A DNA stretch of 64,000 nucleotides, taken from assembly GCA_949296805.1 (NCBI GenBank), contig CASFPO010000007.1, positions 17,291 through 81,290 on the forward strand. Direction: 5' to 3'. The stretch comes from an uncultured Bacillota bacterium (GTDB taxonomy: Bacteria > Bacillota > Clostridia > Christensenellales > UBA1242). The position numbers and the translations under genes are program-made. The first letter of the stretch is position 1. Every line of letters begins with the position of its first letter. This document shows, one piece after another, positions 7,686 to 57,948 of the stretch. The notes below the pieces were generated by a model. The model did not search any database. It worked only from the letters and a program-made list of their open reading frames with translations, and was not told the origin of the DNA.

Positions 7686-8435
7686 ATGAAACATAGGTCA
7701 CTGAAGGAAATTTACAACAATTTTCTTGACAAACTTTTCCCTGTAGAAATTAGGTGTCTGCTTTGTGGCAAGGATATAGCAGAGGGCTCTTTTTTCTGCG
7801 AACAGTGCAGTGAAGAGGACATCTTTAATGAAGGCAATAAGTGTTTAAAGTGCGATGTTATGCTTGACGAGAAAGAAAAAATTTGTGACGATTGCAAAAA
7901 CAACACAAGGTATTTTGAAAGGTGCTTTTGTCCTTTAAATTACAACCAAAAGGTGCGAGGTGCTGTTGTAAAATTTAAAGATAAACACGCAAAATTTTAC
8001 GCCAAACCTTTTGCAAAAATTATATATAATAGGCTAAAAGAAGAAAAGCTTGAGTTTGATTTTATTCTGCCAGTGCCAGCCCACATCAATACCATAAAAC
8101 GCCGAGGCTATGACCCAGTAAAACTTCTTGCAGATGAGCTTTCACTATTAACAAAACTACCCGTCAAGCAAGCGATAATCAAAAAAGTGGACACAAGCAC
8201 ACAAAAGTTTTTGACCTACGAAACGAGGCAAGAAAACATAAGAGACAGTATTACCCGAGACCGAAGTATTGATATTACTGACAAGAGGATACTCCTTTTA
8301 GATGACGTGGTAACTACCTGTGCAACTATAAACTCATGTGCTATGCTACTTGGAAAGGCAAAGGTTGTTTACGCCTGTGCTTTAGCAAGAACTACAAAAG
8401 AGCTGGAAGAGCCAAAACTTGAAGAAGATGACTAA
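7686..8435 (+). CDS. comFC: ComF-family protein (ComFC-like phosphoribosyltransferase domain with N-terminal Cys4 zinc ribbon)
   Basis: CLLCG...CEQC...CLKC...CDDC, then LLLDDVVTTCATI (PRTase motif). Start chosen at ATG 7686 (AAAGG RBS 6 nt upstream); ATG 7680 or the track start 7599 are alternatives. Confidence 0.85.
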   Translation: MKHRSLKEIYNNFLDKLFPVEIRCLLCGKDIAEGSFFCEQCSEEDIFNEGNKCLKCDVMLDEKEKICDDCKNNTRYFERCFCPLNYNQKVRGAVVKFKDKHAKFYAKPFAKIIYNRLKEEKLEFDFILPVPAHINTIKRRGYDPVKLLADELSLLTKLPVKQAIIKKVDTSTQKFLTYETRQENIRDSITRDRSIDITDKRILLLDDVVTTCATINSCAMLLGKAKVVYACALARTTKELEEPKLEEDD

Positions 8436-8480
8436 AAAGCTAAAAATATTTAATTGATAAGATTTTTTTCAAAAAAACGC

Positions 8481-8509
8481 TTGACAGACGTATATTTATT
8501 TTATATAAT
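8481..8509 (+). promoter_or_regulatory. Consensus sigma-A promoter for tRNA-Glu
   Basis: TTGACA (8481-8486), 17 nt, TATAAT (8504-8509). Confidence 0.75.
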
Positions 8510-8545
8510 GAGGAAGTATCAAAAAATTCTCCCTTTTTGATATAT

Positions 8546-8620
8546 GGCCTCATGGTCAATCGGTTAAGACATCGCCCTTTCACGGCGGAGTGAGGGGTTC
8601 GACTCCCCTTGAGGCTACCA
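8546..8620 (+). tRNA. tRNA-Glu (anticodon UUC), CCA encoded
   Basis: Manual cloverleaf: acceptor GGCCTCA/TGAGGCT, anticodon stem TCGCC/GGCGG with loop CTTTCAC, T-arm GGGGTTCGACTCCCC, 3' ACCA. Confidence 0.9.
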
Positions 8621-9158
8621 GGAGGCGAAAACGGCATTGTTGCTTGTTTTCGCTTTTTTTAAAGCGAAAAGCTACGCCCTAACATTTGTTTTCGCCTCCC
8701 CGCACCAAACGTAAATTCTCGTTTCACTCGAATTTAGTGCGACTTCTTATGAGGATGATTATTATATACTGCGTTTCTGCCTAGGCTTATCGGGGTTCCC
8801 CGCAAATCGTGAGATTTGTGGGGTGGTTTTCGGGGTTCCCCGCAAATTGAAAATTTGTGGGGTGGTTTTCGGGGTCCCCAAAAATTGCATAATTTTTGGG
8901 GTAAAGGAGCAAACGAGCGTTGCCGCAATAGTTACATAGTAACTTTGCCTGAGCGTAGTTTGCGACGTGGCGGTGGCGCTTATTTTTTCTCTCCCGGGGT
9001 TCCCCGCAAATCGTCAGATTTGTGGGGTGGTTTTCGTGACCAAACGTGATTGCTAAAGCAATCAGTCACGACTTTTTATAAGGATGCTATTTTGATTTTG
9101 CATTGTTGCTTGTTTTCGCTTTTTTTAAAGCGAAAAGCTACGCCCTAACATTTGTTTT
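8621..9158 (+). repeat. tRNA-Glu-linked modular hairpin cassette bounded by a perfect 59-bp direct repeat
   Basis: DR at 8634-8692 and 9100-9158. 12-bp helix GGAGGCGAAAAC (8621-8632)/GTTTTCGCCTCC (8688-8699) abuts the tRNA CCA. Four copies of GGGGTTCCCC-GCAAATC-loop-GATTTGTGGGG-type hairpins at 8792-8831, 8832-8870, 8871-8907 and 8996-9035. Two ACCAAACGT internal-loop hairpins. Confidence 0.85.
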
Positions 9159-9200
9159 ACTTTTTTGTGTACCCCCAGAATATTTGGATTTTTTGACAAC

Positions 9201-9237
9201 AAAAAAACAGTTTAAGTGTTTGTTTAAACTGTTTTTT
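9201..9237. terminator. Bidirectional intrinsic terminator
   Basis: A7, ACAGTTTAA (9207-9215), loop, TTAAACTGT (9224-9232), T6. Confidence 0.7.
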
Positions 9238-9270
9238 CTTGTTCTTTTTATTTTGTTCAGTCTTTTATAC

Positions 9271-10296
9271 TTATGCTCGTTCTTCTTGTATCTCTTCTTT
9301 GTTTGCGTATTGACCGTCTATATTCTCTCGCTCTTGAGCCTTGATTTCTAAAAACTTATCTAATGCCTTGTTTGAATTCATTCCCAAAAGCATATCCATC
9401 ATTTTGTTATAACTAAGTTCAGCGTTGCAAGACATATACTCTTGAAATGTCTCTAAAGTGCCTTCTCTATCCTTTAAGTACTTATCATATAGCACAGTGG
9501 AAACAATTTCGCCTACAACATACCTCTCTGCGTAACGACGGCGTCTGCTTGTCATTTCTTTTAGTCTTTTAGCTAATACTTTGCTATTTTCATCCAATGA
9601 AATTTCGTACTCTAGTTCTTTTTTAGTCCTTTTGTCCAAAGGGAAAAAGCCCGCCATATCCAATATTTCGTTACACTGAAAACAATAATTAATTTCCCCT
9701 ACCAATGAATTATTCATATCAATAAATAGGTCTTTATATTCTTTTTGAGATATTATATTGTTTTCATAAAGATAGCCAGCAAACACCTTTATCATAAAAA
9801 GCGATTCTACCTCGCATATTAAAGTGTCGACTGCTCGTCTACTGCTCTTCATTCTTTGTGATGATGCGTGGGCTAGCTCGTGAACGATGGTCTGAAGTCC
9901 TATAATGTCATTTGTAGGGTTTATAACAATTTGTCTATATTTATCATTACAATAACTATCTTTATGGCGGTTGAAAGAAGATGGTTTGCTTACCTTTACC
10001 AAAACATTTTCATCATTTAAGACGCTATTTAAATTTTCGTATATTTTTGTCCCTAGTGATTTATAAAACTCAAAACATATCGTAAGCATATCCTCAAGGC
10101 TATAAGCCTTTTTTTCAAATTTTACCTCTTGTTTGCCGATTGTATTTTTTACCTTAGTCAACTTATCTCTATAACAATTTATGGCATTATATATTTTTAT
10201 TGATTTTGCATCTACATAGTTATCATTATACCTATCAATTGCTCTATTACCTATAACACTAAACATTATTTTTCTCCTATGCGGGTATTCTATCAT
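9271..10296 (-). CDS. Putative zinc metallopeptidase (HEXXH)
   Basis: 341 aa with IVHELAHASS and a downstream Glu (CEVES). The start overlaps the stop of the upstream transporter (ATGA), suggesting translational coupling. Confidence 0.55.
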   Translation of the reverse strand: MIEYPHRRKIMFSVIGNRAIDRYNDNYVDAKSIKIYNAINCYRDKLTKVKNTIGKQEVKFEKKAYSLEDMLTICFEFYKSLGTKIYENLNSVLNDENVLVKVSKPSSFNRHKDSYCNDKYRQIVINPTNDIIGLQTIVHELAHASSQRMKSSRRAVDTLICEVESLFMIKVFAGYLYENNIISQKEYKDLFIDMNNSLVGEINYCFQCNEILDMAGFFPLDKRTKKELEYEISLDENSKVLAKRLKEMTSRRRRYAERYVVGEIVSTVLYDKYLKDREGTLETFQEYMSCNAELSYNKMMDMLLGMNSNKALDKFLEIKAQERENIDGQYANKEEIQEERA

Positions 10297-16663: not shown

Positions 16664-16855
16664 ATGATTTCATCACAAAATATCTTATTTGTTCTACTTT
16701 TGTCAGTAATTGCAAACGCAACCGACACCAACCTTAACACCAACACCAACTTTTTGCTTTTGCTACTGCTCGCACTAGGCGGACAAAATAACTTTGGCAG
16801 TGGCTGTTGCCAAAACACCTGCCCAGGACAGTCATCTTTTAATACATTCTTTTAA
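16664..16855 (+). CDS. Small hydrophobic Cys-containing peptide (63 aa), divergent from the ArsR gene
   Basis: AGGAGGG RBS 6-7 nt upstream. MISSQNILFVLLLSVIANA...LLLLLLALGGQNNFGSGCCQNTCPGQSSFNTFF. Confidence 0.55.
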   Translation: MISSQNILFVLLLSVIANATDTNLNTNTNFLLLLLLALGGQNNFGSGCCQNTCPGQSSFNTFF

Positions 16856-17304
16856 TAGAAGATAAACCCAAACTCCTAAGTTTACTATGCTACCTACAAA
16901 AAGTGGATAATCCACCCAGGTCAGTCATCCTTTAACACATTCTTTTAATAGAAGATAAATTTAACCCCAAAATCCACTCCGATACCTACAAAAAGCGAAT
17001 AATTCGCCCAGGTCAGTCATCCTTTAACACATTCTTTTAATAGAAGATAAACCCTAGCCCCAAAGTTTACTATGCTACCTACAAAAAGTGGATAATCCAC
17101 CCGGGTCAATCATCTTTTAACACATTCTTTTAATAGAAGATAAACCCAAACTCCTAAGTTTACTATGCTACCTACAAAAAGTGGATAATCCACAAAAAGC
17201 GAATAATTCGCAAAAGAGGTTTGACATTTAGTAAAAATTTTTTAAAAAAGATAAAATTTAACCCCTAAGTTTACTCAGAAACCTATAAAAAGCAGATAAT
17301 CTGC
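16835..17304 (+). repeat. About 93-bp tandem units that reiterate the 3' end of the small ORF; each carries a covarying short palindrome
   Basis: CCAGGTCAGTCATCCTTTAACACATTCTTTTAATAGAAGATAAA repeated 4 times. Palindromes GTGGATAATCCAC (16903, 17088, 17181), GCGAATAATTCGC (16995, 17199) and GCAGATAATCTGC (17292). Confidence 0.85.
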
Positions 17305-17404
17305 ATTTTTTTGAAAAATTTATGAAAATTATTTTGACTTATTCACTTTTTATGCTATCATTGTCTTGTAAATTAATAAAAAGTAAACAAAAGGAGGGGA
17401 AAAA

Positions 17405-25166: not shown

Positions 25167-25257
25167 GGAGACGTACCGAAGAGGTCGCAACGGGACGCAC
25201 TCGAAATGCGTTTGTCGAGTAATCGGCACGTGGGTTCGAATCCCACCGTCTCCGCCA
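25167..25257 (+). tRNA. tRNA-Ser (anticodon CGA), long variable arm, CCA encoded
   Basis: Acceptor GGAGACG/CGTCTCC, anticodon stem ACGCA/TGCGT with loop CTCGAAA, variable arm TTGTCGAGTAATCGGCAC, T-arm GTGGGTTCGAATCCCAC. Confidence 0.9.
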
Positions 25258-25577
25258 TAGAGAAAAAAACTGCGCTATTGTTTCTGTTCACGCTCTGCGT
25301 GAAAATGAAACCCTTTCGCTTGTTTTTTTCTCCCGGGGTTCCCTGAAAATCGTAAGATTTTTAGGGTGGTCATCGGGTTCCCTGAAAATCGTAAGATTTT
25401 TAGGGTCACTTCCGCACCAAACGTAAATGCTTGCCTAAAAGGGTACCCATAAAATTGTCAAATTTTATGGGATAAAAAATAAACGAGCATTACCGCAAAT
25501 ATTGTGAAACAATTTTGCCTGAGCGTAGTTTATTTCGTGAGTTAAGACTTTCTACAATGAAACCCTTTCGCTTGTTT
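25258..25577 (+). repeat. tRNA-Ser-linked modular hairpin cassette bounded by a 22-bp direct repeat
   Basis: DR AATGAAACCCTTTCGCTTGTTT at 25304-25325 and 25556-25577. Hairpins CCCTGAAAATC-GTAA-GATTTTTAGGG x2 (25335-25413) and CCCATAAAATT-GTCA-AATTTTATGGG (25441-25477). Shares the CCGCACCAAACGTAAAT and AAACGAGC..GCCTGAGCGTAGTTT modules with the tRNA-Glu cassette. Confidence 0.8.
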
Positions 25578-57611: not shown

Positions 57612-57688
57612 CGCGGGATGGAGCAGTTCGGAAGCTCGTCGGGCTCATAACCCGAAGGCCGTTGGTTCAAATCCAACTCCCGCAACCA
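57612..57688 (+). tRNA. Initiator tRNA-fMet (anticodon CAU), CCA encoded
   Basis: C1-A72 mismatch (CGCGGGA.../...TCCCGCA-A-CCA). Three G-C pairs closing the anticodon stem (TCGGG-CTCATAA-CCCGA). T-arm GTTGGTTCAAATCCAAC. Confidence 0.92.
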
Positions 57689-57948
57689 CGTCGCAAACTA
57701 CGCTCGGACAAAATTGCTTTGCAATTTTTGTACTGACGCTCGTTTGCTCCTTTTCCCCACAAATCTCACGATTTGCGGGGTACCCCATATCTCCCCCACA
57801 AATCTTACGGTTTGCGGGGGTTTTTTGTAAGCCAGACTTTTTTATCGGTTTCGGGTTATATCAAGCTCAATGAAGTTGAGCGAAGATATAATCTCGTTTT
57901 CGGCTGTTAGTTCTTTTAACTCCCGCAACCACGTCGCAAACTACGCTC
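57675..57948 (+). repeat. 212-bp hairpin cassette bounded by a perfect 31-bp direct repeat that includes the last 14 nt of tRNA-fMet
   Basis: AACTCCCGCAACCACGTCGCAAACTACGCTC at 57675-57705 and 57918-57948. The interior holds the inverted B module and hairpins CCCCACAAATC-TCAC-GATTTGCGGGG (57755-80) and CCCCCACAAATC-TTAC-GGTTTGCGGGGG (57793-57820). Confidence 0.85.

Follow-up and report, generated by a model that had tools for sequence, protein, structure and literature searches.

The described systems that come closest to the locus analysed here are the BOX elements of Streptococcus pneumoniae (boxA-boxB(n)-boxC), the REP/BIME/REPIN repeats, the integrative islands found at tRNA genes with their integrase-less relics (cis-mobilizable elements, CIMEs), and the intrinsic transcription terminators. 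The locus lies in a window of 64,000 nt, the whole stretch of DNA that was analysed, from an uncultured Bacillota bacterium (GTDB lineage Bacteria; Bacillota; Clostridia; Christensenellales; UBA1242; GenBank assembly GCA_949296805.1, contig CASFPO010000007.1, positions 17,291 to 81,290 of the forward strand). Within this window the tRNA-Glu(UUC) gene is followed, at positions 8621-9158, by a cassette of hairpins and repeats, in which we distinguish the modules A, K, W and Z, a trailer hairpin TH1 that encloses module X, and a second trailer hairpin, TH2. Our reading, to which we assign a probability of roughly 0.6, is that the cassette is a strain-specific allele of a gene-less mosaic of lineage-specific structured modules (A, K, W, Z, TH1/X and TH2) that accumulate at tRNA 3′ ends. 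Judging from its sequence features, the mosaic appears to be constrained as a single strand, probably of RNA. The host group consists of widespread uncultured gut bacteria with genomes of 0.8-1.3 Mb.

Like BOX, the cassette is gene-less and modular, with a variable count of an internal hairpin module of ~40 nt (three against two copies of A between strains) and with closing arms that hold A copies inside; for both families the outer parts can pair, the intergenic DNA is described as transcribed and no dedicated transposase is known. An initial annotation, made from the letters of the window, had drawn this likeness, which is apt as an analogy on account of the variable number of internal hairpins. 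However, BOX elements are scattered between protein genes, are not anchored to tRNA genes and hold no copies of host sequence, whereas the tRNA-end family has more module types, nested in terminator-like helices; the comparison concerns the build only, not the sequence. Module A shares with REP, BIME and REPIN sequences a GC-clamped imperfect palindrome of ~26-35 nt with a conserved non-Watson-Crick position, an arrangement in extragenic arrays downstream of genes, and a fold that is kept while the sequence drifts. Unlike REPIN-RAYT systems, the A family has no Y1 transposase that tracks copy number (such a gene is present in 8/61 genomes); its tandem copies share one orientation instead of forming alternating or inverted doublets, they come in tens and not hundreds, and the anchoring to tRNA genes and the copies of the host tRNA have no counterpart in REP sequences. 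Islands at tRNA genes and CIMEs resemble the family in their direct repeats of the tRNA 3′ part from the T-loop, their stacked units and their strain-variable loci, and tail repeats of the CIME type occur at sister loci (31 bp at the initiator tRNA-Met, the L030 allele of tRNA-Glu and 27 loci in relatives). The cassettes differ from them in having no recombinase gene in or beside them, in units of only ~70-120 bp and in a pseudo T-loop that is always split by the same hairpin, with an inverted T-arm copy before it; moreover, the repeat of the window's cassette lies outside the tRNA. Finally, the trailer hairpins have the A-rich 5′ arm, GC core and T-run of intrinsic terminators, and a plain version of the TH2 sequence is the tRNA-Glu terminator in relatives (L012, L030), but here these putative terminators hold nested hairpins in “loops” of hundreds of nucleotides, and a T-run is missing from TH1. 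Two further comparisons fail on single features. The A hairpins lie 39-40 nt apart with the constant linker TGGTTTTCGGGGTT instead of the unique spacers of a CRISPR array, and TH1 has 12-bp inverted arms but, at its three copies, no flanking duplication as in a miniature inverted-repeat transposable element. The nearest case in the papers found is that of Methanopyrus, with a palindrome situated 10 bp behind tRNA genes (PMC5217627). Hairpin repeats anchored to tRNA genes in this way did not turn up in full-text literature searches, and the family appears to be undescribed so far; new with respect to the papers found and to Rfam are the anchoring at tRNA 3′ ends with a fixed orientation, and the units that copy the host's T-arm (inverted) and tail (direct) from one T-loop position.

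Examination of the cassette placed the tRNA-Glu gene, the 12-bp helix, the 10-bp hairpin, the 59-bp repeat, the four A hairpins and the two CAAACG structures exactly where the initial annotation had put them. Three A copies had been taken as identical; two indeed read ...ATC/GAT..., while the copy at 8838 reads ...ATT-GAA-AAT, which is itself a compensated pair. The compensated fourth variant exists as well, with a loop of four nucleotides (GCAT) and not GCATA. The closing helix of TH1 is 100% complementary and its first base is the one directly after the CCA of tRNA-Glu, whereas the second X copy lacks both closing arms except for GTTTT; inside the first X copy, 8647-8656 and 8661-8670 form the inner 10-bp hairpin. 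The 59-bp repeat is perfect, with 407 bp between its copies, and the flank of the cassette reads ACTTTTTTGTG. An independent scaffold from another assembly (L023) reproduces the cassette save for a 6-nt indel and two contigs of a further sample (L025, L029) match both of its ends, so the cassette is not an assembly artefact. A protein-coding cassette was rejected: the only open reading frames (ORFs) have 41-77 aa, give repeat-derived peptides and overlap 8734-9049.

Modules are present at eight loci of the host genome (G000), namely after the tRNA genes Glu(UUC), Ser(CGA), fMet, Leu(CAA) and Pro(CGG), before tRNA-Leu(UAG), and in contigs C11 and C43, where they adjoin serine-recombinase islands; six of the eight loci are tRNA-adjacent. 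Within the window, their recurrence after tRNA-Ser(CGA) (25341-25471) and, inverted, after the initiator tRNA-Met (57755-57819) had been recognised from the sequence and is borne out, as is the presence of direct repeats at other cassettes. These repeats measure 21 bp at Ser(CGA) (25305-25325 = 25557-25577), 31 bp at fMet (57675-57705 = 57918-57948, including the last 14 nt of the tRNA), 13 bp at Leu(UAG) and 18-51 bp in relatives. At fMet, an inverted W copy sits directly after the CCA. A covariance-model scan, which the initial annotation had proposed for the whole genome, was run with the A hairpin across the genus and returned 0-54 copies per genome, with matches in 43 of 61 genomes (species) and no A copy in the other 18. 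An exact-core scan of one genome per species (185,579 species) gave matches only in metagenome-assembled genomes (MAGs) of uncultured gut Clostridia/Firmicutes. Among the 57 exact-core copies in species representatives, 33 have a tRNA gene no more than 600 nt away; 30 of these lie downstream of it and all 33 share its strand, which upholds across the genus the tRNA association and co-orientation claimed at the outset; many of the other copies are at contig ends. In a relative, G066, 8/15 loci are tRNA-adjacent and the hosts are largely those of G000 (Glu-UUC, Ser-CGA, Leu-CAA, Met, Leu-UAG). Modules at loci in 3′ untranslated regions (3′-UTRs) are co-oriented with the upstream protein gene. 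The modules are thus shown to be dispersed repeats that are tRNA-adjacent, downstream and co-oriented across the genus.

The structure of the modules is conserved. The 11-bp stem of A is 99.5% paired in the 20 copies of this genome, with five pairs changed on both sides, and 99.6% paired in 125 distinct copies from ~35 species, with six double-sided pairs; with either copy set, 0/500 shuffles reached the observed values. In most copies a G·U occupies pair 5, the remaining ones having A-U or U-A with few exceptions, and both neighbouring pairs covary. Because G·U alternates almost only with A-U/U-A, pairing is kept on the tRNA-sense strand alone, and the strand-specific wobble of the initial annotation is supported. 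On this strand the tetraloops are GNNA in 95/115 copies. Across its 13 variants, from several species, the K motif keeps CAAACG invariant on the 5′ side while its outer and inner stems covary, so that compensatory covariation, predicted for both A and the CAAACG modules, is found in both; in addition, hairpin sequence diverges between species with pairing retained. Folding of the whole cassette gave z-scores of -6.55 and -6.74 for the two strands against shuffles (~6.5 standard deviations, SD). Chance is excluded by this 6.5-SD fold surplus together with a covariation reached in 0/500 shuffles. Taken together, these are features to be expected of a tRNA-sense strand that functions in single-stranded form, as RNA or as DNA. 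A search of 18 loci against Rfam 15 yielded only tRNAs at the gathering score and nothing credible at E<=1 or E<=0.01. Sequences ending in ...GCACCA in C11, C43 and G066 were considered as an unrecognised tRNA or structured RNA and rejected (z of -0.7 to -1.2 against shuffles, no tRNA match); they look like the far ends of serine-recombinase islands.

The initial annotation had seen in the 59-bp direct repeat the boundary of a single cassette, and this part of it did not survive. A self-search of the host genome (1.12 Mb, 49 contigs, 33% G+C) detected six full copies of module X and a partial one, among them three 100% identical 59-mers at two tRNA loci, two in the present cassette (contig C7) and one at C28:12226 behind tRNA-Leu(CAA). 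Three X copies come directly after a CCA and the arm (G)GAGGCGAAAAC, at tRNA-Glu, at tRNA-Leu(CAA) and at the ...GCACCA end in C43, which adjoins the serine-recombinase island behind tRNA-Leu(CAG); the other three have upstream the same linker of ~30 nt, GACTTYTTATWAGGATG.TATTTT.ATTTT. Furthermore, almost the whole tRNA-Glu cassette is paralogous to that of tRNA-Leu(CAA), with 81% identity over 415 nt and 163/174 identical positions in the first 175 nt after CCA, and the homology begins at the base after CCA. Given the six full copies and the paralogy of the whole cassettes, both members of the 59-bp repeat are copies of a dispersed module; they are neither the footprint of an insertion nor a duplication of its target or attachment site. 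It begins 13 nt past the CCA and has further copies elsewhere, features in which it departs from the att repeats of a CIME.

Comparison of strains led to the same result. Strain loci were fetched from other assemblies via the neighbouring ComF-like protein (ComF at least 98% identical), and among these strains the comF-tRNA-Glu locus has at least four arrangements. Arrangement (a), that of the window, is found in L023 and in L025+L029. Arrangement (b), found in two independent samples (L030, L031), keeps both flanking genes and the right part, from TTCTGCCTAGGC through the flank, with one A copy fewer; on the left, tRNA-Glu and a plain terminator precede GGGGAGTCGAACCC, which is complementary to the T-arm of this tRNA, and after GGGGTTC and two A hairpins comes CTCCCCTTGAGGCTACCA, a T-loop-split copy of the tRNA-Glu T-arm plus tail, that is, a pseudo tRNA-Glu tail. 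These conspecific strains have only the distal X and therefore no 59-bp repeat. In arrangement (c) (L034), TH1/X is followed by other modules, and in arrangement (d) (L026), TH1/X is joined to ABM-dinB-yolD genes, which in the window's genome lie after the distal X of the tRNA-Pro(CGG) cassette (C6:7049-7400). From the gene neighbourhoods of L026 and G000, module X marks a between-strain difference in gene order, which is either a real rearrangement at module X or a chimaeric short-read contig. A clean empty site was not found among the fetched strain loci. In most other species of the genus, the orthologous tRNA-Glu has only a plain, ordinary terminator. Besides, the short-read contigs L024, L025, L027, L028, L032 and L033, from several samples, stop within tRNA-Glu or shortly behind it, which is where assemblies should end if the modules disrupt them at tRNA genes.

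The simplest members of the family are found in many species as a compact unit, in the order tRNA, trailer plus terminator, inverted T-arm copy, GGTTCG, GGGTTC-hairpin-TAAGG and direct tail copy. The inverted copy is 14-17 nt of the tRNA's own T-arm, and the direct one reproduces the host tRNA between nucleotide 59 of the T-loop and the CCA, the trailer often being duplicated with it. At 16 loci, belonging to Glu, Met and several Leu tRNAs, an inverted T-arm copy is combined with an 18-nt tail copy that is perfect or nearly so; both agree with the neighbouring tRNA, a T-loop variant included, and in 19/27 loci the direct repeat starts 18 nt from the tRNA 3′ end. Compact units, ~70-120 bp in size, occur also as tandem stacks. 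The idea that the repeat boundary lies at the transcript 3′ end was discarded: the right boundary falls in the terminator T-run for three young units, not generally. Whereas allele (b) of the same locus has host-tRNA copies, the window's tRNA-Glu cassette has none, and we read it as a derived, complex member of the family. Its second trailer hairpin illustrates how such complexity is organised. TH2 reads AGAGAAAAAAC.GCGCTTCTGCC ... GGCGGTGGCGCTTGTTTTTTCTCT, with loop contents that differ between loci and with its first 21 nt in common with the plain tRNA-Glu terminator of a sister species; complete copies, with the 5′ arm AGAGAAAAAAC directly after the tRNA CCA, are present in C6, L030, L038 and L068. 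In the window the A-rich 5′ arm of TH2 is replaced by linker Z, and the core helix, with the arms GCGTTTCTGCC (8771-8781) and GGCGGTGGCGC (8969-8979) and a T-run at 8980-8989 (TTATTTTTT), encloses A-A-A-W. Elsewhere, K hairpins enclose a B hairpin and W. The nestings in TH2, in K and in a pseudo tRNA-Leu indicate that modules tend to sit in the loops of older hairpins.

These observations allow a mechanism to be proposed. The mosaics would be put together as DNA, with new units entering the tRNA 3′ end through duplicative insertion or recombination; the point of entry would be nucleotide 58/59 of the T-loop or the position right behind CCA. This would be the hot spot that the serine- and tyrosine-recombinase islands of these genomes use as well. 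Recombination or gene conversion among repeat copies, together with gains and losses in tandem, would afterwards reshuffle the units, and modules landing in the loops of existing trailer or terminator hairpins would give rise to nested helices. Since the tRNA-Glu promoter matches the consensus at 12/12 positions and no canonical terminator precedes the cassette, the latter is probably transcribed as a long structured 3′ trailer. A terminator scan of 8400-9320 flagged three A hairpins only, each with a weak T-run and with TGGTTTTC directly 3′; the hairpin at 9202-9237, which has the best-formed stem and T-run past the cassette, was left unflagged, and the convergent 331-aa gene that shares it occupies 9271-10266 on the minus strand. 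The G·U pair, the GNNA loops and the one-sided CAAACG loop suggest that modules are tolerated or selected as RNA, for which nested extensions of the tRNA terminator or barriers to 3′ decay would be examples of a role. More tentatively, and with less confidence than in the mosaic as a whole, each basic unit, composed of an inverted T-arm copy, a direct copy from nucleotide 59 to CCA and the constant G·U hairpin, might be a non-autonomous element or RNA tailored to its host tRNA, and the window's tRNA-Glu cassette a stack that evolved from such units. The inverted copy can bridge the two parts of the split T-arm, giving a three-way junction. Such a unit would be the footprint or guide of a mechanism that inserts DNA specifically at the T-loop, perhaps with a host or serine recombinase acting in trans, or else a transcribed mimic of the tRNA tail with a cellular role.

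We then considered which enzymes could drive the spread of modules. The Y1/RAYT transposase (PF01797) was rejected as a driver: its presence in 8/61 genomes does not correlate with module count, and it is absent from the module-rich genomes G060, G076, G021 and G024 and present in the module-free G006 and G074. Reverse transcriptase, which could have made retro-copies of the tRNA tail, was rejected too (17/61 genomes, absent from the most module-rich ones). G000 has about five tyrosine-integrase islands, at tRNAs other than the cassette hosts; as a source of modules they were dismissed, their ends and pseudo-tails being without modules. As a separate observation, tyrosine-integrase genes lie beside tRNAs or pseudo-tails in C41, C12, C15, C6, C20, C4 and C33, unusually many for 1.1 Mb; the tRNAs concerned (Arg-ACG, Arg-CCU, Ala, Gly-CCC, Thr-GGU, Tyr, Lys) carry no module cassette. 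A 3.2-kb island at C43:950-4224 (L130) encodes a large serine recombinase of 501-559 aa with Resolvase, Recombinase and zinc-ribbon domains, the 3′ end of whose gene converges on tRNA-Leu(CAG). This island lies exactly between the CCA and an older TH1-K-...-A cassette that terminates in an A-split pseudo-tail of tRNA-Leu(CAG), and it looks like a later insertion abutting the module cassette. Homologues of the C43 recombinase converge on tRNA-Leu, Ser and Asn genes in many genomes of the genus, each after a conserved trailer ...GAGCAATCCGAACC... and a terminator, and in G053 a tail repeat of 20 nt, with its start in the T-loop, delimits a serine-recombinase island. At the far end of the other serine-recombinase islands examined, an A hairpin was not found. 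The tRNA 3′ end is clearly a recombination hot spot of these genomes, and the T-loop is a sublocation used by tRNA-targeting integrases.

Other explanations of the cassette have to be set against the mosaic. The perfect 59-bp repeat around 407 bp, like the bracketing repeats at other cassettes, is what a single mobile cassette of 407 + 59 bp downstream of tRNA-Glu would display if the repeat were its target- or attachment-site duplication. This view is disfavoured by the strain data, in which L030 and L031 keep the distal X and the right flank without the proximal X, and L026 joins the proximal X to a different flank; it is also at odds with the third identical 59-mer and the three further X copies at other loci, with the linker Z that always precedes the second X copy, which thus belongs to a larger repeated unit, and with a closing arm that is not resumed after this copy. 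We consider it very improbable. The recombinases at tRNA ends lead to a different proposal, namely that the modules are scars or hitch-hikers of recombinases, relics or miniature non-autonomous versions of elements that integrate at tRNA 3′ ends, so that the pseudo-tRNA tails would be att repeats, the A hairpin an element-end (arm) site and the cassette a decayed stack of ends. The tail repeats that begin at a fixed T-loop position, the tandem stacks of units, the roughly five tyrosine-integrase islands and several large-serine-recombinase genes that abut tRNAs in 1.1 Mb, and the placement of the C43 island and the bounds of the G053 island described above are all consistent with it. Yet the classical integrase islands here carry AT-rich arm repeats and intact pseudo T-arms without A, K or W, the far-end A hairpin is missing from the other serine-recombinase islands examined, an inverted, host-matched T-arm copy is foreign to known att sites, the 59-bp repeat here excludes the tRNA, and the module-rich G060 and G024 have no intact close homologue of the C43 recombinase. 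An origin as recombinase scars is, on this evidence, quite unlikely.

A dedicated structured RNA, either a domain of the tRNA-Glu precursor or a separate small RNA, with DNA-level variability as a secondary matter, deserves somewhat more credit, although we still hold it to be unlikely. It could signal processing or termination, form a structure that protects the 3′ end, offer a platform for proteins to bind, or act on tRNA T-arms as a decoy or antisense. Co-orientation with the tRNA in 33/33 copies, and with the upstream protein gene at 3′-UTRs, speaks for such an RNA, as do the conserved G·U between covarying pairs, the mostly GNNA loops and the one-sided, invariant CAAACG loop, the drift of hairpin sequence between species under persistent pairing, the lack of a terminator between tRNA-Glu and the cassette in this allele, and the occurrence of A and W also in larger conserved helix-closed elements away from tRNAs. 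It fits poorly with a content that differs wholesale between strains at the same locus, with the plain terminator after tRNA-Glu in most species, with 18/61 genomes without a copy, with simple units placed behind efficient-looking terminators, with the absence of an Rfam match and with the loss of the 5′ arm of one closing helix here (8969-8994, partial partner only).

The mosaic reading has its own difficulties. Among the strain loci there is no pair of empty and filled sites with a clean junction for this cassette, and the insertion step is inferred; neither Y1 transposase nor reverse transcriptase co-varies with the modules among the 61 genomes. The G·U count is inflated, as 46 loci were fetched by a pattern that fixes the wobble and the copies were aligned by fitting to the model. 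Both strands have equal z-scores, and the lower energy of the plus strand, more stable by 27 kcal/mol, could be compositional, the plus-strand shuffles being more stable too. G·T wobbles, like GNNA loops, stabilise hairpins of single-stranded DNA as well. In other species a good terminator precedes the simple units, so that the primary tRNA transcript is unlikely to need them, and the tRNA-fMet cassette is inverted with respect to its tRNA, the sole inverted case within this genome.

Coordinates of the tRNA-Glu locus, the parts of its cassette and the sister cassettes (window positions)
Feature	Position	Strand	Remarks
Sigma-70-type promoter of tRNA-Glu, TTGACA-17-TATAAT	8481-8509	+	12/12 consensus match; identical across all strain alleles
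tRNA-Glu(UUC), encoded CCA, anchor of the cassette	8546-8620	+	ARAGORN; Rfam RF00005, 58 bits
Trailer hairpin TH1, encloses module X	8621-8699	+	12-bp closing helix 8621-8632 / 8688-8699
Module X copy 1, first 59-bp repeat	8634-8692	+	Absent from alleles L030/L031
Module K1, GCAC / CAAACG / TAAATTC-loop-GAATTTA / GTGC	8702-8740	+	
Linker Z1, GACTTCTTATGAGGATGATTATTATATAC	8741-8769	+	Always after K and before the next unit; also before distal X copies
Terminator-like closing helix and T-run, “loop” holds A-A-A-W	8771-8994	+	Helix present in minimum free energy fold
Module A hairpin 1, CCCCGCAAATC GTGA GATTTGTGGGG, GGGGTTC before it	8798-8823	+	60.8 bits
Module A hairpin 2, CCCCGCAAATT GAA AATTTGTGGGG	8838-8862	+	L030/L031 sub-array has one A fewer
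Module A hairpin 3, CCCCAAAAATT GCAT AATTTTTGGGG	8876-8901	+	A-U in place of G·U
Module W, GGAGCAAACGAGCG - hairpin - GAGCGTAGTTTGCGACG	8906-8967	+	Accompanies A at many loci
Module A hairpin 4, CCCCGCAAATC GTCA GATTTGTGGGG	9002-9027	+	58.8 bits
Module K2, GTGAC / CAAACG / TGATTGC-TAAA-GCAATCA / GTCAC	9036-9069	+	
Linker Z2, GACTTTTTATAAGGATGCTATTTTGATTTT	9070-9099	+	Same linker before X in C28 and C6
Module X copy 2, second 59-bp repeat, distal cassette end	9100-9158	+	Found wherever an allele retains the right flank
Bidirectional terminator-type hairpin, shared with convergent 331-aa gene	9202-9237	.	14-bp perfect arms; T-run 9232-9239
Sister cassette after tRNA-Ser(CGA)	25167-25577	+	Trailer hairpin, two A (25341-25366, 25380-25405), B variant (25446-25471), W-like module
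Sister cassette after initiator tRNA-Met	57612-57948	+	W and two A inverted (57755-57780, 57794-57819)

Some related structures were met away from the cassettes or in unusual settings. A conserved structured element of ~330-380 nt, closed by CAGACTGTAGA ... TCTACAGTCTG and containing A and W modules, lies downstream of protein genes in several species (L077 and L078 of G066, L100, L105) and has no Rfam match. A second repeat, several hundred nucleotides long and with an A hairpin inside, is dispersed in G066 (L075, L076, L079), with one more copy inside the tRNA-Glu cassette of that genome (L068); it is marked by the 19-mer GCGGGGGGGGTAAAATAGG, present once each in L075 and L076 and as its reverse complement in L079. 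Before tRNA-Leu(UAG) of the host genome (C49:8674-8847, L005), a pseudo copy of the tRNA's 5′ half has two A-type hairpins inserted at different points; because an inverted D-arm copy (CGTCGTCTGCCATTCCGCC) follows the pseudo 5′ half, the locus folds as a multi-branched palindrome, and a degraded Y1-transposase remnant lies just downstream (C49:9128-9274). At 16777-17305 of the window, the last ~33 nt of a small ORF and the sequence downstream are repeated 4-5 times as units of 92-93 nt, and every unit contains a small hairpin that covaries, GTGGATAATCCAC / GCGAATAATTCGC. In this genome, tRNA genes are thus not the only ones whose tail is copied in tandem along with the sequence downstream of it.

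Small structured repeats of the REP, BOX and Correia type are among the least understood parts of bacterial genomes. In the family described here, the mechanism lends itself to a direct test because the boundary is fixed and the copies match their host. Since the cassettes are hypervariable within the species, break short-read assemblies at tRNA genes and, through module X, mark at least one difference in gene order, they bear on the typing of strains and the quality of MAGs.

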